Below are positions 17,525 to 34,903 of a stretch of 64,000 nucleotides of DNA, one piece after another. The position numbers and the translations under genes are program-made. Origin of the DNA: Escherichia coli (GTDB taxonomy: Bacteria > Pseudomonadota > Gammaproteobacteria > Enterobacterales > Enterobacteriaceae). The stretch's first letter is position 1. The number at the start of each line of letters is the position of its first letter. The DNA is taken from the NCBI RefSeq assembly GCF_041248615.1, contig NZ_CP158426.1. One strand, written 5' to 3'. The notes under the pieces are model-generated. The model had not been told where the DNA came from. It was given only the letters and a program-made list of their open reading frames with translations, and did not search any database.

Positions 17525-17539
17525 TAGTCAGGTGGTTCT

Positions 17540-18574
17540 ATGAAAATTCGCATAATGCTATTTATATTAATGATGATGGTTATGCCAGTGAGCTATGCAG
17601 CATGTTATAGTGAGTTATCTGTTCAGCACAATTTGGTTGTTCAGGGGGATTTTGCACTTATTCAAACACAAATAGCGACATATGAGCATAATTTTAATGA
17701 TTCGTCATGCGTGAGTACAAATACTATCACCCCTATGAGCCCGTCGGATATTATTGTTGGACTTTATAACGATACCATTAAATTAAATTTACATTTTGAA
17801 TGGACCAATAAAAACAACATCACGTTGTCAAATAATCAGACCAGTTTCACCAGTGGTTATTCGGTAACGGTGACACCTGCGGCCAGTAATGCAAAAGTGA
17901 ATGTTTCTGCGGGGGGCGGCGGTTCAGTAATGATTAATGGTGTTGCAACATTATCCAGTGCTTCATCATCGACACGCGGGAGTGCTGCAGTACAATTTTT
18001 ACTGTGTTTATTCGGTGGCAAGTCATGGGATGCATGTGTAAATAGCTACAGAAATGCATTGGCACAAAATGCAGGTGTCTATTCCTTTAATCTGACATTG
18101 TCATACAACCCGATAACCACAACCTGCAAACCGGACGATTTATTAATTACTTTAGAGAGTATTCCCGTTTCACAATTACCAGCCAAAGGTAACAAAGCAA
18201 CAATAAATAGTAACAAAGGGGATATTGTTCTGCGTTGTAAAAACTTATTAGGTCAACAAAATCAAACATCACGGAAAATGCAGGTGTATTTATCAAGTTC
18301 TGACTTGTGGGGCAGTAGTAACACGATCCTGAAAGGTGCGGAAGATAATGGCGTAGGATTTATTCTTGAAAGTAATGGTTCGCCAGTCACACTTTTAAAT
18401 ATCACTAACAGCAGTAAAGGATATACAAATTTAAAGGAAGTTGCTGCGAAGTCAAAACTTACAGATACAACGGTTTCAATTCCGATAACTGCCAGTTACT
18501 ACGTCTACGATACAAACAAAGTTAAATCTGGCGCACTGGAGGCAACCGCATTAATCAACGTGAAATACGACTAA
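17540..18574 (+). CDS. yehA: Fimbrial adhesin-like subunit YehA (344 aa)
   Basis: Signal peptide; last gene of the operon; Ser/Thr/Asn-rich protein. Confidence 0.75.
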   Translation: MKIRIMLFILMMMVMPVSYAACYSELSVQHNLVVQGDFALIQTQIATYEHNFNDSSCVSTNTITPMSPSDIIVGLYNDTIKLNLHFEWTNKNNITLSNNQTSFTSGYSVTVTPAASNAKVNVSAGGGGSVMINGVATLSSASSSTRGSAAVQFLLCLFGGKSWDACVNSYRNALAQNAGVYSFNLTLSYNPITTTCKPDDLLITLESIPVSQLPAKGNKATINSNKGDIVLRCKNLLGQQNQTSRKMQVYLSSSDLWGSSNTILKGAEDNGVGFILESNGSPVTLLNITNSSKGYTNLKEVAAKSKLTDTTVSIPITASYYVYDTNKVKSGALEATALINVKYD

Positions 18575-20157: not shown

Positions 20158-20430
20158 ATGTCTCATACCATCCGTGATAAACAGAAACTGAAAGCGCGTG
20201 CCAGTAAGATTCAGGGCCAGGTCGTGGCGCTCAAGAAAATGCTCGACGAGCCGCACGAATGCGCTGCAGTTTTACAACAGATTGCTGCTATCCGTGGCGC
20301 GGTAAACGGTCTGATGCGGGAAGTGATTAAAGGTCATCTGACGGAACACATCGTTCACCAGGGGGATGAGCTAAAACGTGAAGAAGATCTGGATGTCGTT
20401 CTGAAGGTGCTGGATTCTTATATCAAATAA
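20158..20430 (+). CDS. rcnR: Ni/Co-responsive repressor RcnR (90 aa, CsoR/RcnR family)
   Basis: Size, position and divergent orientation relative to rcnA. Confidence 0.9.
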
Positions 20431-20520
20431 TTTATTAACGCTATTGTAAAACTGCCGTTTTTCCTCGTTTACAACGCGTGCGCTGGACATTACCATCCTC
20501 CTCTGCGATTTATCATCGCA

Positions 20521-20599
20521 ACCAAACGACTCGGGGTGCCCTTCTGCGTGAAGGCTGAGAAATACCCGTATCACCTGATCTGGATAATGCCAGCGTAGG
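20521..20599 (+). repeat. attL: 79-bp direct repeat identical to 33186..33264, a copy of the thiM TPP-riboswitch aptamer sequence (without the 3' strand of P1) joined to the thiM promoter side
   Basis: Exact 79/79 identity: ACCAAACGACTCGGGGTGCCCTTCTGCGTGAAGGCTGAGAAATACCCGTATCACCTGATCTGGATAATGCCAGCGTAGG. The sequence is the conserved thi-box/TPP aptamer. Confidence 0.85.
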
Positions 20600-20684
20600 T
20601 TGCCAACATTCTGATTAGTATTCATGTGGTTACATTTCTTTTTGTCCGTGTGTAATGCACCTAATGTACAAAAAGAGCGTAAAC

Positions 20685-21986
20685 ATGAGGTACAAAACTC
20701 TTCCATACACGTTTCAAAGAAACGGTAATTACTATCTACAGATTCGGCTTTCGAATGGTCGGATGTATAAAAAATCACTTCTCACTGACAGCTATCGTGA
20801 AGTCTCTGCTTTGATGATTGGTGTTGCTCCGTACATTCCTTTTGTTAAATCATTAGCCATCACAATCCCGATGTTTGATGCCTTTGTTTCAAACCTGATT
20901 ATGTCAAAACTTAGGGCTGTAAAAGTTCCGCTGCTATCACATCAGTCGGTAATTACCCCTGCTACATTCGAGGAACCAGCGACACAAGCCGAACCGCAAA
21001 ACATGCTAACTCTTTCTGATGCGTGGGCTATGTATAAAGCGGAAAAGGGTAAAACATGGACAAAGTCGATCTCAAGGGCGAATGAGCGTTACATGGAAGT
21101 CTTGATGGTTGTCTTGGGAGAGACAACTGACGTAGTTGCGATTTCTAAGCAGGACATCAAGCAGGTGATGGAAGTTGTTGAGAATTTGCCTAAGCGTGTT
21201 GTCCAACCGTATCGCTCAATGAACATCCAGCAACTGATTGAATGTGATGATGTATCACCGAATGAGTTAGTAGGAGTGGAAGCCATTCATAAGCATCTCA
21301 AAATCTACAAATCGCTTTTCAAGACTTTTCTAACAGAAAACAAAGATATTTTGATTAAATCCCCAACTGATGGGGTAGTAGCAGCACCATCTAAAGCAAG
21401 GTTTGGAGCATACAGTTCGGCGGAGATGAAGAAGTTTGTAGAGTGGGCACTTAAGCAGCCAGATGGCTGGCAGAAGTGGATAACATTGTTGTTGGCATAC
21501 ACAGGAGCCAGAAGGGGAGAAATTGCCAAACTGGAAAAATCACAAATAAAATATGATGAGGATAGCCATCGGTATTATTTCCTGATTGCAGAAGGAGGGC
21601 AGGGGAAAACCGAAAATGCTACCCGACAAGTAGTGATACACCCTAAGTTGATCGAATGGGGTTTCATGGAATACGTTGATCGCCAGTGGAAAGAACGGAT
21701 TTTTTCAGAAGTGGCTGGTACAAACATGACGAAGATCGGTAAAGAATTTGCTGATGTGCGTGACCAGCTTGACATTCCGTACTTAGACGATTTTGGACAG
21801 CGGAGGCTTTTGCATAGCATTCGTCATTCTGTTTGCTCTACTGCGATGGCTGGATGGGTAAAGAACATCTTGCATCTGCAACAAACAGTAGGCCATGAGA
21901 AAAGTGGAGGGATCACTAAACGCTACTTACATACGTTCCCACTATCATCAATTTGTTATGTTATTGATGGGATTAGTTGGGTCTGA
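20685..21986 (+). CDS. int: Tyrosine integrase of the island (433 aa from 'MRYKTLPYTF'; the provided ORF starts at 20655)
   Basis: C-terminal catalytic signature 'LHSIRHSV' (H-x-x-R) and '...KRYLHT' (Tyr); directly adjacent to the attL repeat. Confidence 0.8.
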   Translation: MRYKTLPYTFQRNGNYYLQIRLSNGRMYKKSLLTDSYREVSALMIGVAPYIPFVKSLAITIPMFDAFVSNLIMSKLRAVKVPLLSHQSVITPATFEEPATQAEPQNMLTLSDAWAMYKAEKGKTWTKSISRANERYMEVLMVVLGETTDVVAISKQDIKQVMEVVENLPKRVVQPYRSMNIQQLIECDDVSPNELVGVEAIHKHLKIYKSLFKTFLTENKDILIKSPTDGVVAAPSKARFGAYSSAEMKKFVEWALKQPDGWQKWITLLLAYTGARRGEIAKLEKSQIKYDEDSHRYYFLIAEGGQGKTENATRQVVIHPKLIEWGFMEYVDRQWKERIFSEVAGTNMTKIGKEFADVRDQLDIPYLDDFGQRRLLHSIRHSVCSTAMAGWVKNILHLQQTVGHEKSGGITKRYLHTFPLSSICYVIDGISWV

Positions 21987-22129
21987 AACTGCTAAGAATG
22001 ATAGGAAAAGCTACTTAATGATCCTTAGTTTTGGATGAAATTGAAGATTACAAAGATCTTGAGCGAATAAGAGCGTTTTTTAATCAAAAAAGCCATAAAA
22101 ACTTTTCTTGACTGTATATTAACACAGTG

Positions 22130-22146
22130 CTTCTACTATGTAGAAG
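22130..22146. promoter_or_regulatory. Perfect palindrome CTTCTACtatGTAGAAG overlapping a TTGACT (-35-like) element upstream of the nuclease/helicase operon; candidate operator
   Basis: Seen directly. The hexamer TTGACT is at 22110-22115. Confidence 0.3.
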
Positions 22147-22203
22147 AAATCGACATGAAAAATTTGATATGGTAAATTTTATCCATGATAACAAAAAGGT
22201 ATT

Positions 22204-23106
22204 GTGGATATGTTACTACCAATACGAGTTCATAAACGATTTCTAACTTTATTTAAGACTTTGCAAATTGACGATTGCCCACCGCAATCAACTTTAAATA
22301 TTCATGTACTTAATATCGAAAGCAATGAATTTATATACTGTAAATTAGTTGAAGAATTACGTGACATAATAATTACTTATGTACATTCGAATAGAAGGCT
22401 TGAGGAGTTTAAGGAAAGTTATCCTTCGTATAGCCCTAAACCTTTTTTCGAAGCAATACAAAAATTTCGCAATTATACGTCAAACGAAGGTGAGTTAGGT
22501 GAACTGCTTTTATACGCTTTTCTTGAAACAGGACTAAATGCTCCGAAATTACTTTCCAAAATGCAATTGAAAACAGATTCTAATGATTACATTAAGGGTT
22601 CTGATGGTGTACATCTGTTAGAATTAGATGATGGTTATCAATTAATATTTGGAGAATCAAAGCTCTATGCCGATCTTTTAGAAGGTGCTCGAGAAGCGTT
22701 TGATTCTATTTTAGATTTTAAAAGTAATGGAATGGCATTTGAAAGAGGGCTGATAGATACACACGTTATAAATGAAATGGTTTCAGAAGAAGGTTATGAG
22801 AAAATAAAATCAATTCTTCTTCCTTCTTCTGGCGATGATGGGCCAGATCTTGATTTATCCTTTGGTATATTTCTTGGTTTTGAATTGAAAATAGATAGCT
22901 CACAGTTATCATTGAAAAACAAAGAGTTTAGAGATTGGGTTAATGAGTCCGTGAAACAACATGCTACTCGCGTGGTCAGTACGATACGAAGGAAAATTAT
23001 TAATCATAAATTATATGGTCACGAATTCCACATATATATAGTTCCTTTTACCGATATTGATGTTACACGAAAAAAATTAATTCATGAAATGCTAACAATT
23101 AAGTGA
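22204..23106 (+). CDS. PD-(D/E)xK nuclease-like protein, candidate HamA (DUF1837-like) of a Hachiman-type defence system
   Basis: Motif 'HLLELDDGYQLIFGESKLY' (D...E-x-K). Its stop overlaps the start of the downstream helicase gene (ATGA-type coupling). AT-rich island cargo. Confidence 0.5.
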   Translation: MDMLLPIRVHKRFLTLFKTLQIDDCPPQSTLNIHVLNIESNEFIYCKLVEELRDIIITYVHSNRRLEEFKESYPSYSPKPFFEAIQKFRNYTSNEGELGELLLYAFLETGLNAPKLLSKMQLKTDSNDYIKGSDGVHLLELDDGYQLIFGESKLYADLLEGAREAFDSILDFKSNGMAFERGLIDTHVINEMVSEEGYEKIKSILLPSSGDDGPDLDLSFGIFLGFELKIDSSQLSLKNKEFRDWVNESVKQHATRVVSTIRRKIINHKLYGHEFHIYIVPFTDIDVTRKKLIHEMLTIK

Positions 23107-25691
23107 ACACTATGAATGAATTAAATTCAAGTAAAAACATTCATTTGGCAGCTCGTCTTGCAGATGATGCTTTTGAAAGTGCTTATTTTAAAGAAATCAA
23201 TAAGTTTATAAGTGGTTTATACAATTACAGTTTATTTAACTGCGATTCAGATGTTAGTCTCTCCGAGAGTGATAACAATAAAATAGCACACGCTTTGCGT
23301 TTTGCAGATATATTTTCACATTCTTCAAAAGAAAATCATAGATCATGTGCATTTGAAATTATAAGTAGAATAGCCTTATTAAAAAAACATGATCCTTATT
23401 TTAAATTTATAGGTACTGCTGTTATTAATCGGCTTGGGGTTTATGCAGCAGAAAAACTCATATCAAAAGGGGTAAAATTACCCTTAGATAGAGAAGTTGA
23501 TTCTATTATTAAAAAATCAGTTCAGAAAACAGATGAAGATGGAGTATATTTCACTGATAAACAACATGAGTTATACAAACTTTTAAAAAGTAGCAAAACA
23601 ATTAGTTTTGCTGGTCCCACTTCGATGGGAAAGTCATTTGTTATTAATGCATACATTAAGGAAATAACTCTTAAAAAAGAGCTTAAAAATATAGCTTTAA
23701 TTGTTCCTACACGGGCTTTAATAAGCCAAAATGCACTTAAGTTAAAAATTGATATTGCATTGTATAAGAATGAAAGCCCTTATAAAGTTGTTACGACATC
23801 CTACATTATTAATGGTGATGAAAGTAAAAATAAAGGCTATATTTTTATTCTCACCCCAGAAAGGCTGGTTAGTCTCATAAGCACTATTCCTGGACTAATG
23901 ATTGATTATGTTTTTGTAGATGAAGCTCAAAAGTTAACAACAAAAAATGATTCGAGGAGTCTTGTTACTTATTCAGCTATAGAGCAAACAATTAGTAAAA
24001 ATCCTGAGGCAAGATTATTCTTCTCTTCACCTAATTTATCTAATCCTGAAATATTTAATATTTTGTTTGATAGAAAAGACGCTTCGGTATATAGAAATAC
24101 AGAAGGTGCAACTACTCAGAATATGTATTTTATTGATCTTTTAAATAGCAGCTTTAGCTATGTTAATACCGAGAAAAGGACGCTTGAAAAAATAGATGAG
24201 ATCTCTAATACTTACACGAATACAAATGATGTTATCTATAAATTAAATAATGGTAAAAGTAAAATAATTTATTGTGGGGGGATAGAAAGCACGCTTGAGA
24301 GAACACGTAGCTTTATCAATTATCTCAAAATTAATAAGAAAAAAAGAAAGCATTTAAATTTAGAAATATCTTCTGAGATAAGAAACTTTGTTCATGATAA
24401 CTATGAACTTGCAGAAGCCATCAACTATGGTGTTGCTTTCCACTTTGGAAACTTGCCTCAATCGATTCGAGATTTAATTGAGCATCATTTCAAAATAGGA
24501 AATATTGACTATCTATTCTGTACATCAACCCTACTTGAGGGAGTCAATTTACCTGCAAGATCCGTATTTATTCTTACGCATAAAAAAGGCCCCAGTCCAT
24601 TAGAGTCGGTTGATTTTTGGAATCTGGCTGGGAGAGCTGGGCGATTATCTATGGAATTGTCAGGGGATATTTTTTGTATTAGGGATGATAATAAGCTTTG
24701 GAATAAAAAAGCTGTTGATAATATCCTTCTGTCTGACAAAAATAACATTTCATTAAAGCCAAGCTTCTATATTGAAGACGAAAAAAGATTGAACGATTTA
24801 CACCATATAATTACGACTGGTAAAACAGGGAATATTAAAAATGCTGAGTTCCTTAGAACTTTAGGAGATATGATAAGAATAGACACTCTGAGGGATTCTA
24901 AAGAACTTCCTCTTATTAGTTATTTCCAAAGCAGTGGAAAATCAGAAATTTTGTTAAGTGCAGAAAAAAGCACTGAAAATATTACCATGCCAATGAATAT
25001 CCTTTTGGCAAATAGTCATATTGCGATTGATTCGCAGTATCATGCTTTTAAAAAAATAAAAAGCCTTACAGTTAAGGAACTGAAATTATCATGGCAGCCT
25101 ACATACGAAGAAATTAAAGAAAAATTGAATTTGATATTCGATATTTACCAAGTTGAAAAGTTTGCAACAGGTAGAGAACGTCTTTATTTAAATTCAATTC
25201 CATATTATGCAGTATTACTGTTTCAATGGATTCGTGGAAATAGTCTACAGGAAATTATCTCGGGGGCAATTGCTTATAGAAAGAACAAAAGTATATATAT
25301 TAAAAATACACCTGTTCTTTTTGACAGCGAAAACCCAGCTCATTTAACTGCATTAGTTAATGAAACTATAAAAGACATTGAGTTGCGTGTAGGTTACCAG
25401 TTACAAAATTATTTTTCACATTACTGTCAGCTTCTGAATTATGTGTTACAAGGAAATCCAGGGGCAAACTGGTCTCAGTTCATTGAGTTTGGCTCTAATG
25501 AGCCAATAGTATGGCACCTACAAATGATGGGCTTTTCAAGGGATAGTGCAGTTTTTCTCAAGAAGAATTTTTCAAAACATCTTAAACTTGATAATGAAAT
25601 GAATAAACTCATCATAATGGATAAGGAACTGATCAAGCGTTCTTTCAAAAAAGATGGACTACATTACTTAGAAATCCAATCGTTATTATAA
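23103..25691 (+). CDS. SF2 helicase (862 aa), candidate HamB of a Hachiman-type defence system
   Basis: Walker A 'AGPTSMGKSF', motif II 'VFVDEAQKL', motif III-like 'FSSPN', 'TSTLLEGVNLPA' and motif VI 'LAGRAGR'. Translationally coupled to the upstream nuclease-like gene. Confidence 0.55.
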   Translation: MNTMNELNSSKNIHLAARLADDAFESAYFKEINKFISGLYNYSLFNCDSDVSLSESDNNKIAHALRFADIFSHSSKENHRSCAFEIISRIALLKKHDPYFKFIGTAVINRLGVYAAEKLISKGVKLPLDREVDSIIKKSVQKTDEDGVYFTDKQHELYKLLKSSKTISFAGPTSMGKSFVINAYIKEITLKKELKNIALIVPTRALISQNALKLKIDIALYKNESPYKVVTTSYIINGDESKNKGYIFILTPERLVSLISTIPGLMIDYVFVDEAQKLTTKNDSRSLVTYSAIEQTISKNPEARLFFSSPNLSNPEIFNILFDRKDASVYRNTEGATTQNMYFIDLLNSSFSYVNTEKRTLEKIDEISNTYTNTNDVIYKLNNGKSKIIYCGGIESTLERTRSFINYLKINKKKRKHLNLEISSEIRNFVHDNYELAEAINYGVAFHFGNLPQSIRDLIEHHFKIGNIDYLFCTSTLLEGVNLPARSVFILTHKKGPSPLESVDFWNLAGRAGRLSMELSGDIFCIRDDNKLWNKKAVDNILLSDKNNISLKPSFYIEDEKRLNDLHHIITTGKTGNIKNAEFLRTLGDMIRIDTLRDSKELPLISYFQSSGKSEILLSAEKSTENITMPMNILLANSHIAIDSQYHAFKKIKSLTVKELKLSWQPTYEEIKEKLNLIFDIYQVEKFATGRERLYLNSIPYYAVLLFQWIRGNSLQEIISGAIAYRKNKSIYIKNTPVLFDSENPAHLTALVNETIKDIELRVGYQLQNYFSHYCQLLNYVLQGNPGANWSQFIEFGSNEPIVWHLQMMGFSRDSAVFLKKNFSKHLKLDNEMNKLIIMDKELIKRSFKKDGLHYLEIQSLL

Positions 25692-25771
25692 AACTGCCGA
25701 ATCAGAGTCTTTTATTGATTCTGATTCGCACTTATATAGTTAAATCAAAAGGAGCATTAAAATTTTTCAGT

Positions 25772-25795
25772 AGCGATTTAGTATGCTAAATCGCT
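25772..25795. other. 10-bp perfect inverted repeat AGCGATTTAGtatgCTAAATCGCT between the helicase gene and the resolvase gene (hairpin; possible terminator or site)
   Basis: Seen directly. Confidence 0.35.
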
Positions 25796-25999
25796 GCATA
25801 ACGAATCTGCTTCTAAATCTTGATTAAGTGTTTCGAACTGCCTTGATTGTTTATTGCTACACTTTATAATTAATCGCAACACACAAAACAATACAATGTA
25901 GGCAGTTGCACAGAATTAATTACAGGCACATTATGGATATCGAGAGGATTCGAACAGTTTTAAACTGCAAGCCCTTTGACTTTATCCCCTCCTACTATA

Positions 26000-26575
26000 T
26001 CAGCGTTTGATGCCGCTAATACTGGCAAGCATTTCTTTCTTCACACGAAAAACTGTAGCCCTGCCGCAATCACATAACTTTGCTATCTCGTCTGGTGTAT
26101 TCTTCCCGGCCTGTAACATATCGATAATCTTGTTATGTAGCTCTTTGTTCTTTTGCTTGCCCTTGTACTTCTTAGCCTCTTTAGCAAGAGCAATCCCCTC
26201 ATTGCGACGAGATGCGATCATACCCCGCTCAAATTCTGCAGCGGCTCCCATCATGGTTAGGATAAGGCGTGATTGTGGGGAATTATCAAAACTCATAGAG
26301 TTTGCAAGGAATTGAACAGTGATTCCACGAGCCACGAGGTTATCAATCATTTCCAGCAAATCGCGGGTATTACGTGCAAGGCGATCAATCGAGTGAGTAA
26401 CGAGCGTGTCACCTTCGCGGAGGTGTGAAAGCAGGTTCAACAATTCAGGTCTTTCGCTGGTGGACTTACCTGATTCTTTCTCTGCCACAATTTTGTCACA
26501 AACAGGTTCCAGCACTGCCAACTGACGCTCAAGATTTTGATCCTTTGTTGAGACTCTCGCGTAACCAAAAATCAT
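26000..26575 (-). CDS. Serine recombinase (resolvase/invertase family, 191 aa)
   Basis: N-terminus 'MIFGYARVSTKDQNLERQ' carries the catalytic Ser motif of resolvase/Hin-family enzymes; C-terminal helix-turn-helix region. Confidence 0.9.
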   Translation of the reverse strand: MIFGYARVSTKDQNLERQLAVLEPVCDKIVAEKESGKSTSERPELLNLLSHLREGDTLVTHSIDRLARNTRDLLEMIDNLVARGITVQFLANSMSFDNSPQSRLILTMMGAAAEFERGMIASRRNEGIALAKEAKKYKGKQKNKELHNKIIDMLQAGKNTPDEIAKLCDCGRATVFRVKKEMLASISGIKR

Positions 26576-26599
26576 TTTCCTGCCCTCACTTACGTGAAA

Positions 26600-26663
26600 A
26601 GTATCATTTGAATTTACTTAATGATACAGTATCATTTAAATGCATTCAACATCTAAATGATAC
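26600..26663. promoter_or_regulatory. res-like recombination site array upstream of the resolvase gene: GTATCAtttgaatttacttaaTGATAC and AGTATCATTTAAATG...CATCTAAATGATACT inverted repeats
   Basis: Repeated TGATAC/GTATCA half-sites seen directly; typical location 5' of the resolvase gene. Confidence 0.45.
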
Positions 26664-27125
26664 TAAACGAGACGAGAAAAGCGAGTATCGTTAGGGAGTA
26701 CCCAAAAGAGATTTTTGATCGTGCGTTTTTTAGTCAATGTAGGGTTAGTGAAAAGTTCAGTACCGAGATCTGAGTTCACGGCATTTTGTCGACGGGGTTG
26801 AACCTGATTAGGCGAACGAGATTTTAAATCAGGCGGAATAAAACAAGTTGTACTTTTATCTGAGTAAAAGATCCCTTTAACTTTTTAGTCAGAAATCGTG
26901 ATACTAGGGGTTTGGTTATTTTGTGTCCTTAAGGCCAGTACTTTTAGCGAGGACGAAAAAACGGCCTACATGAGAACGCTTACAGTAACTTAAGTATATT
27001 ATCCAAAAAGTCACTTAACTTAAATCAATTTGGATGCAAAATCGCCACACTTTGCAAGTGAACACATACCGGGCAACAAGCAAATAAAAAAGGCCACTTT
27101 CGCGACCTTGTACCAGTACAAACAC

Positions 27126-27485
27126 TCATTCAGAACGATCAAGTACCATATATGCTGGCTGACACATGCTGCCCCGCTCCTGTAGCCAGTAGTAATCAAG
27201 ATCGGCAACACGCACGTCCAATCCAGAATCTACACGGTTGATCTGTAACCGTAGCCCTACAGTATCCTTGTACGATAAACCAGATTTAACATTGTATTTG
27301 TACTTAACACCGTTTTCCTGTTCAAACTGTTTAAGGAAAGGCGTCATTTGTTTCTGAATTTCTTTCAAACAAATAACCTCATTATCAATAGCAAAGGGGG
27401 GTTCTGTTTTTCCATCAGGTACAGCAGCCTGTAAATGAAAGGAAGTACTCAACAATAACAGCATTGCAACAGAAGTCTTTTTCAT
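27126..27485 (-). CDS. Small secreted protein (119 aa, signal peptide 'MKKTSVAMLLLLSTSFHLQA'), unknown function
   Basis: Signal peptide followed by a two-Cys mature domain; 43 nt downstream of the membrane protein gene on the same strand. Confidence 0.6.
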   Translation of the reverse strand: MKKTSVAMLLLLSTSFHLQAAVPDGKTEPPFAIDNEVICLKEIQKQMTPFLKQFEQENGVKYKYNVKSGLSYKDTVGLRLQINRVDSGLDVRVADLDYYWLQERGSMCQPAYMVLDRSE

Positions 27486-27528
27486 TTTAATTCCTTATTA
27501 AAGAACAGTACATTATATTTCAATGGAC

Positions 27529-28569
27529 TTAATAACAATATTTTATATTTCCTTCGGGTTTTCTCATGCATTTAATTCCTTCAGGAATATAATCAGTTAC
27601 GGGAGCAGGTCTGGCATCAGGTCTTGAAAGACGATTGGATATAGAAGACAACAGACTGAAAACACACTCATTAAATGATTTTTGATATTTATTTTTTTCA
27701 TAAAAGTACTGCATGGTGATTTTATCTCTTTCGTATTGCAATTCTTTGCCAAGCTGAATCCTATCCATATCAATTCCATTTCTCATAGCATTAAATCTTT
27801 CGTTCAATAAATTAAATTGAGATTTATTCCATTCATTTAAAGGAAATAAAGAATTGTTAAGCCTTTGCCTACAATTAGATTGCTCGATAGCTGACATGTA
27901 TTCTTTCATACTAACGCCAATATCTAAGTATGTGAGTTGTCCAGCAGTTCTATCAACTGAGTTATTAGGGTAAGATTTAATTTCAGTAAGTATTGACTCT
28001 GTTAATACTGCATTTTCTTCTAAATCTTTGCTAATAGTTATTTGAGCTTGTTCTCTTTTATCCTTATCAAATATTGAAATGTATTTCTTTACTATATCCT
28101 GATTAGCTTTCTCGGCTGCTACTAACGCATCTTGAACCTTCTTTTCCGCCGCTTTAACTCGTTGTTCTTCTACAAATTTCGCGTAGTCATCAGTATTTGT
28201 AATGTGATTTTCACGAGCGATAGAAAACTCTTTACTATCTTTAAAACCAAGTTTTTGTGCTCTGGCTCCATCGCTTGAAGATCGGGCAGAACTTGCCACG
28301 AAAGCGAGCACAATGATCAGTACAGGAACCGTATAATTATTAACGAGTTTATAGGGTAAGAACTTCGCTTTAAGCGTACCATAACCCAAAACAGCCCAGC
28401 CTATCGCGGCAGTACTTGCCAGTAGCTGGCACAATCCAGCGACGGAAAGCATGATTACCGACCAGAAGCCTGTACCGACTGCGAAAAGATCACCAAATTT
28501 CTCCATTGACGCAAGGAATAAAAACACTCCCCAAATGCCATAAAATCCTATTTTCAAATATTTACTCAC
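27529..28569 (-). CDS. Membrane protein (346 aa): three N-terminal transmembrane helices plus a long charged/coiled-coil domain, unknown function
   Basis: Hydrophobic stretches at residues ~7-28, 37-62 and 74-95, followed by a Lys/Glu/Gln-rich region; AT-rich codon usage. Confidence 0.6.
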   Translation of the reverse strand: MSKYLKIGFYGIWGVFLFLASMEKFGDLFAVGTGFWSVIMLSVAGLCQLLASTAAIGWAVLGYGTLKAKFLPYKLVNNYTVPVLIIVLAFVASSARSSSDGARAQKLGFKDSKEFSIARENHITNTDDYAKFVEEQRVKAAEKKVQDALVAAEKANQDIVKKYISIFDKDKREQAQITISKDLEENAVLTESILTEIKSYPNNSVDRTAGQLTYLDIGVSMKEYMSAIEQSNCRQRLNNSLFPLNEWNKSQFNLLNERFNAMRNGIDMDRIQLGKELQYERDKITMQYFYEKNKYQKSFNECVFSLLSSISNRLSRPDARPAPVTDYIPEGIKCMRKPEGNIKYCY

Positions 28570-29552
28570 CGCAATTATCCTTTAATAATTTTCCAAATCG
28601 ATGGTTCGTTCTATTTGTATTATCGACAATAATTCGTTTGCCTTTAGGTAGATCCCTTAAAAAGGAATCCCCCCAAAATTTATAGATTAGCAGTTGTACC
28701 ACTCTCACTGTTTTGTCACTCCCATTATCTTCTCTCAGGTCAAAAGTACGGACTTAAAGCCGTCCGTGTTCAGGTGCTCAAGAGTAGCACGCATATCAAT
28801 AAATGATCGATAAAAACGATCAATTAATGGCTTATTGATCGCTATAACCTATCAATGACTATTAATTCAATACAAATCAATAGGTAAAATCGATCAAGAG
28901 GATTCGTCATCCATGAAAGGGGTTATGTATCTGATTTCAATACAGGGAGTATTAGCGATACCATCACGCAAACGCTCTTAAAGCGTAGCTACGGCGTTTT
29001 GTAGGGTTTTTGGTCATTCATGTGTGTCAGTAATGAACATCGCATTCAGGGGCTTCCTGTGCGTTTTGTCCGAAACACCATCATGAAGGGGGACAGATCG
29101 GATCGGGGTCGCTTCGCTCTGGTCAGTACTGGATAGTTCTTTTCCAGTAACTGAAACCGCAGATACCCCACTAAGTACACAAAGGAATTATTTGTAGAAT
29201 AAGTAATGAAATAACAGTCAGTTATGTACTTACTGACAGAACTAAAAACGCGATTAGGTTCGCTCTGTCAGTGACCGAAGGGAACGCAACAGTAGAATCT
29301 AATCCAGCGAACAGTACACGCAAGCGGGTGCTGTTTAATTGTTTTATCTATGTAAACAATGGGATAGCTATCAAGTACTCACTGCGTGAGCACTCTCACT
29401 AACTACCCGAAACAGTTCGCTTGCTTCGCCGCTCCTACTTTCAGGTAGTTAATTCGCTTTCGCTCGTTGTGATGTCCGAAATTTATTACCTATAGTATTA
29501 TAAGGTATTATTTTCCGGACATTTATGTATTTTTATGATGGTGTTCTGGACA
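28570..29552. other. ~1-kb non-coding region with a GATC/ATCAAT-rich AT-rich cluster (28795-28900) and at least six TTCGCT iteron-like repeats in both orientations (29107-29471); candidate origin or regulatory region
   Basis: No ORF of 60 aa or more. Repeats 'ggtCGCTTCGCTCtggtcag', 'ggTTCGCTCtgtcagtg', 'cagTTCGCTtgcTTCGCcgc', 'aaTTCGCTTTCGCTCg' and 'cAGCGAAcagtac'. Four GATC sites lie within 100 bp. Confidence 0.4.
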
Positions 29553-31028
29553 TCATTTTTTGCTTTTTTGTACTTCCTTTTCGTATTTGTTCCACATAGC
29601 CTTTTGCTCTTCGGGACTGAGTGCTGTATTACCACTGGCAAGAAACACCTTGAACGCTTCTAACTCAAGCCCTGGGTTGCGGCTTTTCCAGCGGCGAAAA
29701 CGCTTAGCGTGATTATCATCAAGAGTGAAACGCTTTTGCTTATTCTTTGAACCTTGCGGCCTGCCTCTCGACCTCTGCTCATCATCAATACCGATATCTA
29801 TATACTCAATATTATCTGTAAGAGATCTGGCTTGCCATTCATCAAAAACATAAACAGTCTGTGTTTCAGTACTGTCAAAATCCCTTGAAATTCCTCGTAG
29901 TACGAACTGGTGTAAACTTTCGTACTCCCTCGCAACATGTATCGCCTCGCCGTCAATCTCAAAGAACAATTCGCACTGTTTAGCCTCTGTTTCAGAGGGA
30001 CGCATACAAGCGAGCCAGACGCACGTGAGCAAGTGTTGGTACTGGTTAAACCCTCTGGCATCCGGGCTTATCTCTGTGCCGTTTTTGAGGCTCTGAGAAT
30101 CGCTTTTGTTCTTCGTCCAGTAGAAATCCTGTCCCTCAAGTTTTTTATCAATAAATGAGTATATTTTTTGTACTTTATCAGGGTTATTAGTCTTCCATGT
30201 CTTCGATAGTTTTTGATTTTTTGAGAAGTAATAAACCTTTAATCTGTCTTTGAGAGCTGTTTTTCGTGTCAGTAATCCTCCAAGTTCAGTACTTTCAAAG
30301 AGTTCTTTATTGCCTTTATAGATCAATGAATTTTCGAAATTAGCTCCGAGAAAGGTGATTGATACGTCTTTGTACTTACTGAGATCTTTCCATGCGGTAA
30401 TATTAAGCTGTTCCTTTTTCGCATCGGTAAAGTACTCATTATTCATGATGAACATATCATTTTCGTTAATTGCTGGTAGCTGGTTCAAAATATTCTTCAG
30501 TACTTCCCCTTGTATTTCTGGTTTTCTTTCTGCCGCAATATACATATTTTTATCATCTAATGTCAGTACATTGTGTATTAATGAATTAAGAATTGTATTT
30601 TTTATATTAGTATCACCCTCATTAATATTCTGAAAAGAGTGAAAATTAGTAACGTCGTCAATATAAATATTACAGTCAGATAACAATTCAGGAGGAATTT
30701 TGAAAAACGTTTTATCTGTTATGAGTAATGTTTTATTACTTCCAGATGAAAGAAAGTTAATAACTGAATTAATAACACTTTCATCTTTTGGTACTGTATC
30801 TGTAATTATATACTCGCAATTATTGATTTGCTTTGCTGTCTGCTTAATAAGTTCTTGAGTGTTCTGTACTAAAATATATTTTTCAGTACTGTTATTGATT
30901 ATATTGCATATAGCAGTAGTTTTACCTGAACCACAAGGGGCGGAGACATACTTAAATTTATTATAAATAGGTGTGGGATTAATCATTTGTACACGCTCCA
31001 TATTGATTAATGTAGAAAGGTCAGCCAT
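29553..31028 (-). CDS. P-loop NTPase (491 aa) with C-terminal AT-hook-like motif; candidate Rep/helicase-like replication or mobilisation protein
   Basis: Walker A 'SAPCGSGKTTAI' near the N-terminus; Walker B-like 'IYIDDV'; C-terminal 'SRGRPQGSKNKQKR' (AT-hook GRP core). Confidence 0.6.
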   Translation of the reverse strand: MADLSTLINMERVQMINPTPIYNKFKYVSAPCGSGKTTAICNIINNSTEKYILVQNTQELIKQTAKQINNCEYIITDTVPKDESVINSVINFLSSGSNKTLLITDKTFFKIPPELLSDCNIYIDDVTNFHSFQNINEGDTNIKNTILNSLIHNVLTLDDKNMYIAAERKPEIQGEVLKNILNQLPAINENDMFIMNNEYFTDAKKEQLNITAWKDLSKYKDVSITFLGANFENSLIYKGNKELFESTELGGLLTRKTALKDRLKVYYFSKNQKLSKTWKTNNPDKVQKIYSFIDKKLEGQDFYWTKNKSDSQSLKNGTEISPDARGFNQYQHLLTCVWLACMRPSETEAKQCELFFEIDGEAIHVAREYESLHQFVLRGISRDFDSTETQTVYVFDEWQARSLTDNIEYIDIGIDDEQRSRGRPQGSKNKQKRFTLDDNHAKRFRRWKSRNPGLELEAFKVFLASGNTALSPEEQKAMWNKYEKEVQKSKK

Positions 31029-31370
31029 TCCAGTGTCTGGCCTTTCGTTGTTTTAGTTATTAGTCTTTTTGAGTTGCGACAACTGCAAGAGAATGTTTAT
31101 AAACAAGTGAAATAAGCAGTTTTACCGCCTCAAAAGCTACAGTCAGTTTCGTAATTATTTTCGAAAGCATCGTAAATTTCACTTCGCTATCTTCTATGCA
31201 AAAATTAGCAGCCTGAGGTATTTAATGATTGAGATGTGGCCTGTTGATAAGAGGGTTTGTATTGCTTGTTCTGCTCTTTGTTAATTTGTGACTTATTCCT
31301 TTCACAATGATCGGCTATGTTTGATAACTCTGTTAGGAAATCACCTATGGCTACCATATTGGATTTGCCC

Positions 31371-32276
31371 CTATATTTCCAGACACCTGTTATCACTTAA
31401 CCCATTACTGGCCTGCTGCCGCAGATATTCCCGTGGCGAGCGATAACCCAGTGCACTATGCGGATGCCATTCGTTATAATGCTCGAACGCCTCTGCAAGG
31501 TTCTTTGCTGCCGTTAACCCGTCTGGTTTAGGCATGATACTGATGTAGTCACGCTTTATCGTTTTCACGAAGCTCTCTGCTATGCCGTTACTCTCCGGAC
31601 TCCGCACCGCCGTGTTCTTCGGTTCAAGCCCCAATATCCGGGCAAACTGCCGTGTTTCATTAGCCCGGTAGCATGAACCATTATCCGTCAGCCACTCTAC
31701 TGGAGACGCCGGAAGCTCGTTGCCGAAGCGGCGTTCCACCGCTCCCAGCATGACGTCCTGTACTGTTTCACTGTCGAAGCCGCCCGTAGTGACTGCCCAG
31801 TGCAGTGCCTCACGGTCACAGCAGTCCAGCGCGAACGTGACTCGCAGTTTTTCTCCGTTATCACAGCGGAACTCGAACCCGTCAGAGCACCATCGTTGAT
31901 TGCTTTCTTTCACGGCCACTTTGCCAGTATGTGCCCGTTTCGATGGCGGTACAGCGGTTTTTCGCTCAAGCAACAGCGCATTCTGGCGCATGATCCGGTA
32001 AACACGTTTGGCATTGATCGCAGGCGTACCATCAAGTTCGGCCTGTCTGCGAAGCAGCGCCCATACCCGACGATAACCATACGTGGGCAGCTCTCCGATA
32101 ACATGGTGTATACGGAGAAGCACATCCGTATCATCTGAGTGACGGCTGCGGCGACCATCTTTCCAGTCATCGGTTCGTCTGAGAATTACGTGCAACTGCG
32201 CACGCGACACCCGGAGACAACGGCTGACTAAGCTTACTCCCCATCCCCGGGCAATAAGGGCGCGTGCGCTATCCAC
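31371..32276 (-). CDS. insD: IS2 transposase OrfB (InsD, 301 aa)
   Basis: Translation '[30 protein letters not shown]...' and DDE transposase region. Confidence 0.9.
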
Positions 32277-32599
32277 TTTTTTGCACGCCCGTATTCAACG
32301 GCTTCTTTAAGGAGTTCATTTTCCATCGTTTTTTTGCCGAGCAGGCGCTGGAGTTCTTTAATCTGCTTCATGGCAGCAGCAAGTTCAGAGGCAGGAACGA
32401 CCTGCTCTCCTGCGGCCACAGCAGTAAGACTTCCCTCCTGGTATTGCTTGCGCCAGAGAAATAACTGGCTGGCTGCCACACCGTGTTGCCGGGCAACAAG
32501 GGAGACCTTCATTCCCGGTTCAAAACTCTGCTGAACAATAGCGATCTTTTCCTGTGTAGTACGCCGTCTGCGTTTCTCCGGTCCTAAGACATCAATCAT
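32234..32599 (-). CDS. insC: IS2 OrfA (InsC, 121 aa from '[18 protein letters not shown]')
   Basis: Helix-turn-helix protein overlapping insD in the -1 frame, as in IS3-family elements. Confidence 0.9.
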
Positions 32600-33073
32600 C
32601 TGCTCTCCAATGACTAGTCTAAAAACTAGTATTAAGACTATCACTTATTTAAGTGATATTGGTTGTCTGGAGATTCATGGGGCCAGTCTACATATAATCA
32701 TGTTCATCTTCTAATTCTTTAAATTTTAATAGAGAAATCTCTTCATAATATTCTTTCATTTTCATATAAATCACCTTTTATTTTTTTGTTGTTAACACAG
32801 GTTTTTTTCTGCACTACACATTATAGCACATAGAATTAATTCGTTTCATTTTCTGTCAATGAAATAGAGTAAAGATAAATGCTTTTATAAAGCACTTATC
32901 ACATCCGTTGCCTTGCTATATATAAAAAGTTCTCCAAACTATACTGGTGTATATTTTCCCCATCAGATACAGTTGTTTTTAAACATTACAATGTTGGATT
33001 CTTGGTTCCAAATAAATCGAGCAACTATTAGTGTTTCAAAATGAAGTTGGGAGCTATTCCTTAATTCGTATGA

Positions 33074-33102
33074 GGTACAAAATGGGGTACTCGGTGGGGT
33101 AC
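33074..33102 (+). promoter_or_regulatory. Three direct repeats of GGTAC at 12-bp spacing (aGGTACaaaatgGGGTACtcggtgGGGTACag), ~85-110 bp from the att core; candidate integrase/Xis arm-type sites. A 13-mer ATGAGGTACAAAA (33069-33081) recurs at the int start codon (20685-20697)
   Basis: Seen directly. Confidence 0.35.
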
Positions 33103-33185
33103 AGCGTGTATAAGTGACGTCACCACGGGTAAACTTGCATCGGCGAGCAACTTAACCTAAGCTGACAAAAATTAAGAGAAATGTA

Positions 33186-33317
33186 ACCAAACGACTCGGG
33201 GTGCCCTTCTGCGTGAAGGCTGAGAAATACCCGTATCACCTGATCTGGATAATGCCAGCGTAGGGAAGTCACGGACCACCAGGTCATTGCTTCTTCACGT
33301 TATGGCAGGAGCAAACT
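33186..33317 (+). ncRNA. thiM TPP riboswitch (aptamer plus expression platform) preceding thiM; its first 79 nt (33186-33264) form the attR direct repeat
   Basis: Conserved thi-box sequence CUGAGA...ACCUGAUCUGGAUAAUGCCAGCG; its 3' continuation 'GAAGTCACGGACCACCAGGTCATTGCTTCTTCACGTTATGGCAGGAGCAAACTATG' carries the anti-Shine-Dalgarno/Shine-Dalgarno platform. Confidence 0.85.
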
Positions 33318-34106
33318 ATGCAAGTCGACCTGCTGAGTTCCGCGCAATCTGCGCACGCGTTACACCTTTTTCACCAACATTCCCCTCTTGTGCACTGCAT
33401 GACCAACGATGTGGTGCAAACCTTTACTGCCAATACCTTGCTGGCGCTCGGTGCATCGCCAGCGATGGTTATCGAAACCGAAGAGGCCAGTCAGTTTGCG
33501 GCTATCGCCAGTGCGTTGCTGATTAACGTTGGCACGCTGACGCAGCCACGCGCACAGGCGATGCGTGCCGCCGTTGAACAGGCAAAACGCTCTCAAACAC
33601 CCTGGATGCTTGATCCAGTAGCGGTGGGTGCACTCGATTATCGCCGCCGTTTTTGTCTGGAACTTCTGTCTCATAAGCCAACCGCCATACGTGGTAATGC
33701 TTCGGAAATCATGGCATTAGCTGGCGTTGCTAATGGTGGACGGGGAGTGGATACCACTGACGCCGCAGCTAACGCGATACCCGCTGCACAAACACTGGCA
33801 CGGGAAACTGGCGCAATCGTCGTGGTCACTGGCGAGATGGATTATGTTACCGATGGACATCGTATCATTGGTATTCACGGTGGCGATCCGTTAATGACCA
33901 AAGTGGTAGGAACTGGCTGTGCATTATCGGCGGTTGTCGCTGCCTGTTGTGCGTTACCAGGCGATACGCTGGAAAATGTCGCATCTGCCTGTCACTGGAT
34001 GAAACAAGCCGGAGAACGCGCAGTCGCCAGTAGCGAGGGGCCAGGCAGTTTTGTTCCACATTTCCTTGATGCGCTCTGGCAATTGACGCCGGAGGTGCAG
34101 GCATGA
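33318..34106 (+). CDS. thiM: Hydroxyethylthiazole kinase ThiM (262 aa)
   Basis: Length, position after the TPP riboswitch, 4-nt overlap with thiD. Confidence 0.95.
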
Positions 34107-34903
34107 AACGAATTAACGCTCTGACGATTGCCGGTACTGATCCGAGTGGTGGTGCGGGGATTCAGGCCGATCTTAAAACCTTCTCGGCACTTGGCGCTTA
34201 TGGTTGCTCAGTGATTACTGCACTGGTGGCGCAAAATACCCGTGGCGTACAGTCGGTGTATCGCATTGAGCCTGATTTTGTCGCCGCCCAGCTCGATTCG
34301 GTGTTCAGCGATGTGCGAATCGATACCACTAAAATCGGTATGTTGGCGGAAACCGATATTGTTGAAGCGGTGGCAGAACGGTTGCAACGTTATCAGATCC
34401 AAAACGTGGTACTCGACACCGTTATGCTGGCAAAAAGCGGCGACCCGCTGCTTTCACCTTCGGCGGTTGCTACGCTGCGCAGTCGATTATTGCCACAGGT
34501 TTCATTAATAACGCCAAACTTGCCCGAAGCTGCTGCCTTGCTCGACGCGCCACACGCGCGCACCGAACAGGAAATGCTGGAACAAGGGCGATCGCTGTTG
34601 GCGATGGGCTGTGGCGCAGTGCTAATGAAAGGTGGTCATCTGGATGATGAGCAAAGCCCGGACTGGCTGTTTACTCGCGAGGGAGAACAACGGTTTACCG
34701 CACCGCGCATTATGACCAAAAACACCCACGGCACTGGTTGTACGCTCTCTGCGGCGTTGGCTGCACTACGCCCGCGCCATACAAACTGGGCTGACACCGT
34801 ACAGGAGGCAAAAAGCTGGCTTTCATCGGCGTTAGCCCAGGCCGACACGCTGGAAGTTGGTCACGGTATTGGTCCGGTTCACCACTTCCACGCCTGGTGG
34901 TGA
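34103..34903 (+). CDS. thiD: Hydroxymethylpyrimidine/phosphomethylpyrimidine kinase ThiD (266 aa)
   Basis: Length, translational coupling with thiM, PfkB-like fold motif 'GTGCTLSAA'. Confidence 0.95.

Follow-up and report, generated by a model that had tools for sequence, protein, structure and literature searches.

An integrative island of Escherichia coli that probably uses the thiM TPP riboswitch aptamer as its attachment site and rebuilds it on insertion

Between rcnR and thiM on the Escherichia coli contig NZ_CP158426.1 (assembly GCF_041248615.1), of which a stretch of 64,000 nucleotides was analysed (hereafter the window), lies a 12.6-kb insert bounded by two copies of the thiamine pyrophosphate (TPP) riboswitch aptamer of thiM. 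The segment 20600-33184 is very likely a small integrative island, which would have entered the thiM aptamer by means of its own tyrosine integrase and rebuilt the 5' part of the aptamer in doing so. On the left, the chromosomal flank ends with rcnR (20158..20430, plus strand; Pfam PF02583, Trns_repr_metal, E 3.5e-21; annotated as rcnR in all related loci), followed by a candidate native thiM promoter, TTTACA-N17-TACCAT (20468..20496, plus strand), which scores 9/12 in a consensus scan as a pattern match alone, is host DNA common to empty sites and now reads through the left attachment site, attL, into the integrase gene, int. The right chromosomal flank (33318..34903, plus strand) carries thiM (33318-34106) and thiD (34103-34903), annotated so in related loci. 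A repeat search of the window showed that the two ends of the island are joined to a direct repeat of 80 nt, 100% identical (20520-20599 = 33185-33264) and spaced by 12,665 nt, which is far beyond what chance would produce. The first-pass annotation, made from the letters of the window, had reported a perfect repeat of 79 bp; its perfection stands, and its length is corrected by one base on the left. That annotation had also recognised the repeat as the core of the thiM aptamer, and both copies indeed exceed the gathering score of the Rfam TPP model (RF00059, 54.3 bits). The right copy (33187..33283, plus strand) scores 71.2 bits over model positions 1-105 with P1-P5 complete, and the thiM start at 33318 lies 35 nt past the match with the expression platform in between: with a score above gathering, all five helices and a thiamine gene downstream, it qualifies as a TPP riboswitch. 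At 58.0 bits, the left copy (20522-20617) has its P1 3' strand swapped for island DNA after ...GCCAGCGTAGG; 3/5 P1 pairs are non-canonical, its 3' side is island DNA and then int, and it has no expression platform. It is a truncated relic. Thus attL (20520..20599, plus strand) represents the aptamer on the host promoter side, cut short after P4, with the junction after GCCAGCGTAG(G) at all loci, and the right attachment site, attR (33185..33264, plus strand), carries an aptamer whose 5' and core part appears, from the allele patterns described below, to be island-derived up to the crossover. The RF00059 matches and the gene layout agree with the earlier description of a left copy joined to the native promoter side and a right copy joined to the thiM expression platform and coding sequence, and the insert is as AT-rich as had been noted by eye, with a GC content of 0.378 (0.361 without its insertion sequence) against 0.456 and 0.519 in the flanks. 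ARAGORN detected neither a tRNA nor a tmRNA gene in window positions 15000-38000, and, the repeat being a TPP aptamer, the element falls outside the tRNA/tmRNA-targeting class.

The gene next to attL (20685..21986, plus strand) encodes a tyrosine integrase of 433 amino acids (Pfam PF00589, 30.7 bits against a cutoff of 27.1; phrog_1, 1e-25). The open reading frame (ORF) has an alternative start at 20655; because the homologues are mostly 433 amino acids long, the second ATG is suggested as the int start. All 10 family members compared have R276, K308, H377, R380, H404 and Y414, which make up the complete tyrosine-recombinase catalytic set R-K-H-R-H/W-Y. The protein gave no Pfam match to an arm-binding domain and has no meaningful sequence relative among solved structures. 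A phage origin of the integrase was considered and rejected, as no INPHARED phage encodes it.

Our survey of the species covered 5426 complete E. coli genomes. In silico deletion of 20600-33264 yields a sequence that aligns to an empty-site genome over 936/936 positions with 0 gaps. In MG1655, as in most E. coli, rcnR and thiM are contiguous with a single aptamer copy, in agreement with the first-pass annotation, which had the two as neighbours in K-12; the empty-site strains that it proposed to look for exist, their junction is precise, and islands occupy the same site in other strains. The full island is present in 8/5426 genomes, in independent assemblies. The window is 100% identical to NZ_LT599825.1, and in four other carriers, spread over at least three backgrounds, the island is 99.84-99.93% identical compared with 96.3-97.7% for the flanks. 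Because the identity of the island lies far above that of the flanks in unrelated backgrounds, these comparisons indicate recent horizontal transfer into one fixed site. The sporadic spread, the horizontal transfer, the atypical composition and the precise bounds set by direct repeats are those of a genomic island. Occupancy of the site can be gauged only roughly, from totals and not from per-genome tables: the 80-nt repeat has 5671 matches in 5424 genomes, so that ~247 genomes (~4.5%) would have an extra or split copy, and an uninterrupted virtual empty site of 675 nt is present in 4727 genomes and missing from 697. Most of the gap between these two figures is explained by 340 genomes that carry a scar of the island, described below. 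Added together, the ~247 extra or split matches and the 340 scars make ~590 of the 697; the ~100 genomes left over could hold other insertions or divergent alleles.

A nucleotide search with int returned 19 E. coli genomes at 75-100% identity. Each locus inspected lies between rcnR and thiM and is flanked by two "TPP riboswitch" features annotated by PGAP, with differing cargoes in between: an AAA ATPase pair, a TIR protein, an ImmA/IrrE set, an HNH endonuclease or a 13-kb capsid-bearing element. Conservation among the islands at the DNA level is limited to int and a right arm of ~115 bp. Relatives of the integrase sharing about 55-84% of their amino acids were found, in contigs representing one genome per species, at 31 loci in at least 15 genera, including Leclercia, Enterobacter, Buttiauxella, Lelliottia, Atlantibacter, Erwinia, Pantoea, Klebsiella, Citrobacter, Franconibacter, Trabulsiella and Mangrovibacter. 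Practically every full-length int among them is preceded, on the same strand and 40-130 bp away, by a TPP aptamer (17 of these aptamers score above the Rfam gathering score, and the rest were found by the core motif), and the junction between host and island is constant, directly after GCCAGCGTAG at all loci. At the loci whose second copy could be reached (two in Enterobacter, and those of Mangrovibacter and Pantoea), that copy has a full aptamer score and thiM comes after it. The protein family comprises at least 454 clusters at 90% identity, with 433 amino acids as the commonest length, all of them named "tyrosine-type recombinase/integrase". Together, the empty sites, the coupling of integrase and aptamer across genera and the lack of a tRNA or tmRNA gene uphold the proposal that the element uses the TPP aptamer, and not a tRNA/tmRNA 3' end, as the identity segment of its attachment site. 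Tandem arrays were also observed at the thiM aptamer: a scar plus an island in locus L001, a clade-B and a clade-A island of the family (L019 and L008, 13.5 kb apart on one Enterobacter nematophilus contig), and a phage-inducible chromosomal island (PICI) plus a clade-B island in L042. Arrays of different clades use one common junction, and the site has evidently been reused repeatedly, judging from these arrangements.

Where within the repeat the strands are exchanged can be read from islands in which attL and attR differ. Allele differences occur at repeat positions 1-10, 27-28, 52 and 53, and none at 54-80. In L002, L003 and L004, the rcnR-side copy is of E. coli type throughout, whereas the thiM-side copies differ in the P1 5' strand (ATCTACATGA vs AACCAAACGA) and in the P3 loop (TTAAAT, TACG and TTTG vs TGCG); the thiM-side copies of L004 and L001 have changes at repeat positions 53 and 52. 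L038 carries the same island as the window, and there the P3 loop reads TT on the rcnR side while the thiM side has the island's GC; TT is the native allele of the L038 lineage, as checked in the empty-site strain LF82, which has the same ThiM protein accession. These patterns indicate that, 5' of the crossover, the thiM-side sequence comes from the element and the rcnR-side sequence from the host, and they place the crossover within repeat positions 54-80, i.e. the last ~27 bp (20573-20599 in attL, with no strand assigned, and 33238-33264 in attR). This region contains the P4-P5 segment CCTGATCTGG-ATAATG-CCAGCGTAGG, an imperfect 10-bp dyad with a 6-nt loop, and the identity between the two copies stops exactly at the end of the dyad. 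By analogy with attachment sites in tRNA anticodon and T-loops, the stems would be core-type sites and the loop the overlap region.

An element that rebuilds the 5' side of the aptamer leaves the native promoter reading toward int, and for this reason the island would have to supply transcription of thiMD. A promoter-like motif, TTGCAT-N17-TAAGCT, lies in the right arm on the plus strand (33135-33140 / 33158-33163). Clade-A islands of several genera keep its general form, TTGCAx-N17-TAAxCT, in their right arms while the spacer varies in sequence, and the distance of the window motif (33135-33163) to the aptamer is about the same as that of the native promoter candidate. From this conservation, and from the scar that follows, we infer that thiMD is transcribed from the island-borne candidate promoter. 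A 2.3-kb island remnant lies between rcnR and a single aptamer in 340/5426 genomes (6.3%), the O157:H7 lineage included. This scar (L047:1236-3640 in E. coli O157 FDAARGOS_293; also L001:17595-19960) holds three genes, all on the minus strand, for an outer membrane protein-like, a hypothetical and an HTH_73 protein. The native thiM promoter region is absent from the scar genomes, and only the island arm with TTGCAT-N17-TAAGCT is found upstream of the aptamer. Because the native promoter region is deleted, it appears that thiMD can be transcribed only from island-derived DNA in these lineages.

The same aptamer has a second user. In E. coli 90-9280 (NZ_CP024240.1), a ~15-kb satellite resembling capsid-forming PICIs lies between rcnR and thiM (L044:5740-5985, L045:9480-9860), bounded by a direct repeat of the 14-mer AGAAATACCCGTAT. 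It encodes an integrase, primase, single-strand binding protein, capsid, protease, portal, connector, HNH protein, TerS and TerL, and no tail genes; its integrase has 406 amino acids and is unrelated to that of the window (BLASTP E 0.25). The 14-mer corresponds to repeat positions 39-52 (window 20558-20571 / 33223-33236) and so to the middle of the aptamer, which puts the crossover of the satellite ~15-40 bp upstream of that used by the window family. The satellite does not bring the rest of the aptamer, and its insertion splits the riboswitch: the remnant on the thiM side reaches 35 bits, below gathering, the other half is undetectable, and PGAP annotates no riboswitch at either end. For the PICI EcCI224, the published attC is AGAAATACCCGTAT and its location is given as "frmR-thiM" in Table S1, with no mention of a riboswitch (Fillol-Salom et al. 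2018, PMC6092414). The coordinates thus place the published EcCI224 core, presented as an intergenic site, inside the thiM aptamer. The EcCI224-type PICI shares with the window island the chromosomal interval and the aptamer; it differs in having an unrelated integrase and in splitting the aptamer without repair, whereas the window family restores it. The IMG/VR contig L042 was tried as an attP, the attachment site of the free element, with a 41-bp identity block, and rejected: it proved to be the point where a PICI-type satellite, with its 14-bp core, adjoins a clade-B island in tandem.

We then asked what the upstream part of the repeat is for. Its 5' ~53 nt are nearly invariant among islands of many genera, whereas the adjacent arms are ~50-60% identical. 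Changes in P3 are compensatory (CCCTTC/GAAGG vs CCCCATC/GATGGG), the P1 5' strands of island type are no poorer at pairing than the native E. coli one, and the thiM-side aptamers of sister islands score 73.1-77.7 bits compared with 71.2 for native E. coli (RF00059). The thiM-side aptamer is hence structurally intact with an island-derived 5' part, as is characteristic of target-restoring attachment sites. Since the crossover lies 3' of them and the PICI integrase needs 14 bp, the upstream ~53 nt would not be required for recombination. Their near-invariance, the compensatory changes in P3 and the intact scores of the chimeras argue that the copy is kept on the element to rebuild a working aptamer. 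Both the allele patterns and the complete 71.2-bit aptamer sustain the earlier proposal that the island brings its own aptamer copy and leaves the thiM-side riboswitch intact. It could be held instead that the copy is an extended recombination identity or a captured leftover, and that thiMD is silent, constitutive or irrelevant after insertion. ThiM is a salvage enzyme that is probably dispensable in rich environments, no promoter is called at the right end of the island, and the aptamer-splitting PICI persists in natural strains, which implies that loss of regulation is tolerated. A leftover would, however, hardly keep near-invariant a stretch that recombination does not need, with the P3 stem pairing preserved, P1 strands that pair well and chimeras reaching 73 bits, and the O157-type scar has kept exactly the arm and the aptamer before thiM in 340 genomes. 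We consider this explanation unlikely and prefer an aptamer rebuilt by the element.

The two arms that flank the aptamer in attP carry further ordered sequence. In the right arm, or P arm (33065..33184, plus strand), which is conserved among islands, there are three ~12-bp repeats at 33070-33103 with GGTAC(A/T), consensus rGGTACAAnnTG, and an inverted-repeat arm at 33174-33194. The left arm, or P' arm (20600..20700, plus strand), has its inverted-repeat arm at 20622-20642 and two more repeats, GTACAAAAAG (20666-20675) and GGTACAAAA (20685-20697); the second of these overlaps the start codon of int and could serve in its autoregulation. ATGAGGTACAAAA occurs at both 20685 and 33070, and an A/G difference in the motif is matched on both arms inside each island. 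Taken as a set, the five rGGTACAAA-type copies over both arms (33070-33103, 20666-20697) recall lambda arm-type sites in count and layout. Over the whole window GGTACA is not significantly enriched (26 observed vs 17.9 expected; 3/100 shuffles reach 26); what is suggestive is its local clustering in the arms, which is conserved from island to island. In 7/7 reconstructed attP sites the aptamer is bracketed by an inverted repeat (window 33174-33188 / 20627-20641). Its sequence varies by island (L001-L004, L021, L032) with the arms staying complementary, a pattern seen in 7 islands, and in clade B both arms fit the consensus of the integration host factor (IHF), WATCAANNNNTTR. We regard the arm repeats and the inverted repeat as putative protein-binding sites of an intasome. 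These same features could be read as regulatory rewiring, in which int, placed behind the thiM promoter and aptamer in attL or behind a helix-closed aptamer in attP, couples excision and re-integration to thiamine or to the integration state. Int does follow the truncated aptamer at a distance of 85 nt, on the same strand and with no promoter of its own called; the bracketing arms remain complementary though their sequences differ; and the GGTACAAAA repeat overlaps the int start. Against this, the attL copy is without the P1 3' strand and the expression platform, a closing helix of 13-19 bp would be stable regardless of ligand, and the fit of the clade-B arms to the IHF consensus offers a simple explanation at the DNA level. 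Such coupling is improbable to us, and binding sites for the recombination machinery remain our preferred reading of the arms.

Two further explanations concern the insertion itself. RecA-dependent homologous recombination between the aptamers of a circular element and the chromosome would dispense with the integrase, whose role is deduced from sequence, and 80 bp of perfect identity suffice for inefficient homologous recombination. Yet the same junction nucleotide recurs in >30 diverged loci with int always adjacent and in the same orientation, alleles switch only upstream of a fixed 27-bp block, and the arms bear conserved repeat arrays, all of which makes this route very unlikely. Vertically inherited core DNA lost elsewhere, or an assembly artefact, both of which the first-pass annotation had raised against its own interpretation, can practically be dismissed in view of the 8/5426 distribution, the contrast in identity between island and flanks, the GC content of 0.36-0.38 vs ~0.5 and the recurrence of the same structure in many independent complete assemblies and genera.

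Integration by the island's own integrase would thus proceed as follows. The integrase would recombine the attP of the element with an attB inside the thiM TPP aptamer, strand exchange taking place in the last ~27 bp, at the P4-P5 hairpin dyad, a geometry that integrases exploit in tRNA anticodon and T-loops. Insertion would cut the expression platform off the promoter and the 5' two-thirds of the aptamer. The attP, however, would carry its own 5' part (P1 5' strand, P2, P3 and J3-2) with the conserved arm ahead, and after integration a chimeric, structurally intact aptamer would control thiM, presumably transcribed from the island arm, while the displaced host promoter and the truncated aptamer would now face int. 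Cargo between int and the right arm would be exchangeable. In the excised form, the attP junction is predicted to read right arm, aptamer, GCGTAGG, TTGCCAAC. All of the following are predictions from sequence: the catalytic role of this integrase, the exact position of the crossover, the function of the arm sites, the island promoter and present-day excision.

Several observations weigh against this model. Neither an excised circle nor a contig in attP form was found, attP-only patterns giving 0 matches when metagenome contigs were scanned twice and viral contigs once. The two copies in the window are 100% identical, so that the crossover cannot be placed from the window alone; the 27-bp bound rests on few sister islands, with the host allele verified for the L038 lineage only, and gene conversion between the repeats could blur the allele patterns. 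The proposed promoter TTGCAT-N17-TAAGCT matches the sigma-70 consensus at 6-7/12 positions and is not called by the consensus scan. Finally, none of the small ORFs of the island in the window was recognised as an excisionase gene, and the HTH_73 gene that adjoins attR in sister islands is absent from it; given the lack of a recognised excisionase and a small gene split by an insertion sequence (see below), the window copy may be immobile.

A broader and rather doubtful possibility is that the thiM aptamer is a contested landing pad, where one family swaps promoters, int being driven by the host thiM promoter with the truncated aptamer and thiMD by an island promoter with the chimeric one, where in the excised form a helix specific to the element closes the aptamer and lets int expression sense the integration state and possibly thiamine, and where a second, unrelated satellite integrase breaks the riboswitch deliberately, as a kind of regulated gene integrity. 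If true, attachment sites in riboswitch aptamers would form a general class, so far overlooked, with regulatory consequences.

Islands in tRNA and tmRNA genes (Islander/TIGER), whose sublocation model is reportedly due to Williams in 2002, resemble the window family in several ways: a tyrosine integrase sits beside one attachment site, attB lies in the conserved sequence of a structured RNA whose hairpin supplies the dyad, the target is rebuilt from a fragment carried on attP, the cargo changes from island to island, and the elements are scattered among genomes and can stand in tandem. They differ in that the target here is a cis-regulatory mRNA leader and not a stable RNA gene, and in that the window family rebuilds the 5' and not the 3' part, which leaves the intact copy distal to int and requires the element to supply transcription. 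Integrases specific for dusA target the 5' end of a protein gene and supply a replacement 5' end, presumably with a promoter; unlike the aptamer of the window, their target is a coding sequence. The principle of target-restoring integration into structured-RNA genes has been stated (PMC7192596). The supplementary lists of the same TIGER study name islands "Eco824.15.TPP_RNA" and "Kox2.11.TPP_RNA", as well as a c-di-GMP-I_RNA|ktrA entry (Mageeney et al. 2020, PMC7192596), whereas the word riboswitch has 0 occurrences in its main text and the TPP_RNA entries are names in tree and list files (PMC7192596). These two entries are E. coli and Klebsiella oxytoca islands whose attB direct repeat overlaps Rfam TPP, and, matched by name and not by coordinates, they very probably belong to the window family or to the PICI type. 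An "rcnR-thiM" defence island is likewise tabulated in supplementary file 4 of Hochhauser et al. 2023, with mobile genetic element type "None", restriction-modification type IV and non-hotspot status (PMC10121019). Sharing the interval and having defence cargo, it is probably an L037-type island (7.8-8 kb, HNH endonuclease); its integrase, attachment site and riboswitch go unremarked there. Other non-coding RNAs are known as attachment sites, namely rybB for Felsduovirus at hotspot #29 (PMC10121019), ffs 4.5S RNA (PMC12540744), and 6S RNA and small RNA (sRNA) names in the TIGER lists. Like the thiM aptamer, these provide a conserved small structured RNA as attB, but they are trans-acting or stable RNAs, whereas the window target is a ligand-sensing leader that controls an operon. 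Full-text literature searches returned no narrative description of a riboswitch attachment site, some co-occurrence matches being irrelevant.

The belief expressed in the first-pass annotation that riboswitch-targeting integrases are undescribed hence holds in part: no text discusses a riboswitch attachment site, while the TPP_RNA islands, the rcnR-thiM island and the PICI core had already been tabulated. The phenomenon has been captured by pipelines and never described, and it is a variant of known target-restoring integration. What is new here is the ligand-sensing leader as target, the restoration on the 5' side with the promoter replacement that it implies, and the delimitation of an integrase clade and its core site. 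Also new are the use of one aptamer by two unrelated integrases with opposite outcomes for the riboswitch, and the O157:H7 scar that replaces the native thiM promoter. These findings would add a metabolite-sensing mRNA leader to the tRNA, tmRNA and sRNA genes that are targets of the integrate-and-rebuild strategy, and they explain the duplicated "TPP riboswitch" annotations in genome records. Control of thiMD appears to be non-native in some lineages, through the scar leader and promoter in O157:H7 or a PICI-split riboswitch elsewhere, which is relevant to the use of E. coli thiM as a model TPP riboswitch. The integrase clade shuttles anti-phage systems (Hachiman, TIR, AAA-ATPase, HNH), and its compact attB of at most 27 bp within an 80-nt conserved element could serve as a site-specific integration tool in Enterobacteriaceae. 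The family is a large one with clear bounds, lends itself to experiment and may have regulatory consequences.

The cargo of the window island begins with hamA (22204..23106, plus strand; Pfam HamA 1.2e-62, PADLOC HamA1 2.4e-120) and hamB, encoding a helicase (23103..25691, plus strand; PADLOC HamB1 8.3e-296, DEAD/Helicase_C). The two genes overlap by 4 nt, and adjacent HamA (DUF1837) and HamB make a complete Hachiman system by PADLOC; given this cargo, the window island would in functional terms be a mobile defence island. In the sister copy of E. coli A37 (L038:18455-21033), hamB is annotated as two ORFs of 1245 and 1239 bp, which suggests a frameshift that inactivates the Hachiman helicase. 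A CRISPR-DR61 match within hamB (25393-25430) was dismissed as chance (E 0.88). Further along lie a serine recombinase of the resolvase/invertase type (26000..26575, minus strand; Pfam Resolvase 2.5e-36, phrog_125 DNA invertase), a type that recurs in sister islands ("Recombinase family protein" in L001-L003 and L037), and two genes for a secreted-like protein of 119 and a membrane-like protein of 346 amino acids (27126..28569, minus strand), without a match in Pfam, PADLOC, PHROGs or NCBIfam. They are followed by a P-loop helicase-like protein (29553..31028, minus strand; weak N-terminal ResIII/DEAD match, phrog_2467 1e-38) with a possible role in replication or mobilisation. None of the hallmarks of PICIs, capsid-forming PICIs or P4-like satellites (alpA, pri-rep, terS, capsid; P4 alpha, sid, psu, delta, cos) was found in the window island with Pfam, PHROGs and NCBIfam.

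Near the right end, a gene of 74 amino acids on the minus strand is cut into a 3' part (31205..31359) and a 5' part (32691-32766) by an IS2-like element of the IS3 family (31360..32690, minus strand; 1331 bp; Pfam rve and HTH_Tnp_1). The ends of the element are TGGATTTGCCCC and TAGACTGGCCCC, and its length of ~1.33 kb, its orfA/orfB and its 5-bp target duplication (CATAT, 31355-31359 / 32691-32695) are those of IS2. It is missing from the sister copies L038-L041, which measure 11.3 kb and from which the insertion point was mapped, so that the comparison makes IS2 a secondary insertion, later than the island. Strains C325 (NZ_CP124819) and A37 (NZ_CP029327) are among the carriers free of it. 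The "two recombinases/IS elements" counted earlier are to be read in this light: the integrase and the serine recombinase stand, and one listed item is this secondary IS2. The split gene, which is intact in L040:26548-26772 (minus strand) and has no family match, holds the position where relatives have the HTH_73 gene, beside the right end; it is a possible candidate for a directionality factor.

Three side observations concern related loci and the flanks. The 13-kb element of E. coli TC24 (L004:19606-32906) has a clade-B integrase with 65% amino acid identity to that of the window and carries capsid-like (phrog_29), tape-measure-like, replication-initiator and Sie-like genes, a content that marks it as a satellite or miniature prophage, not a defence island. 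Left of the island, in the yehA/rcnB region of the window, the GC content dips to 0.38-0.42 at 17000-18500. Finally, ~19 kb upstream of the thiM site, close to yehK/yehL, there are matches to the OrzO-P antitoxin RNA (85-100 bits; L002:818-893, L004:131-204, L045:29053-29736), which are unrelated to the island.

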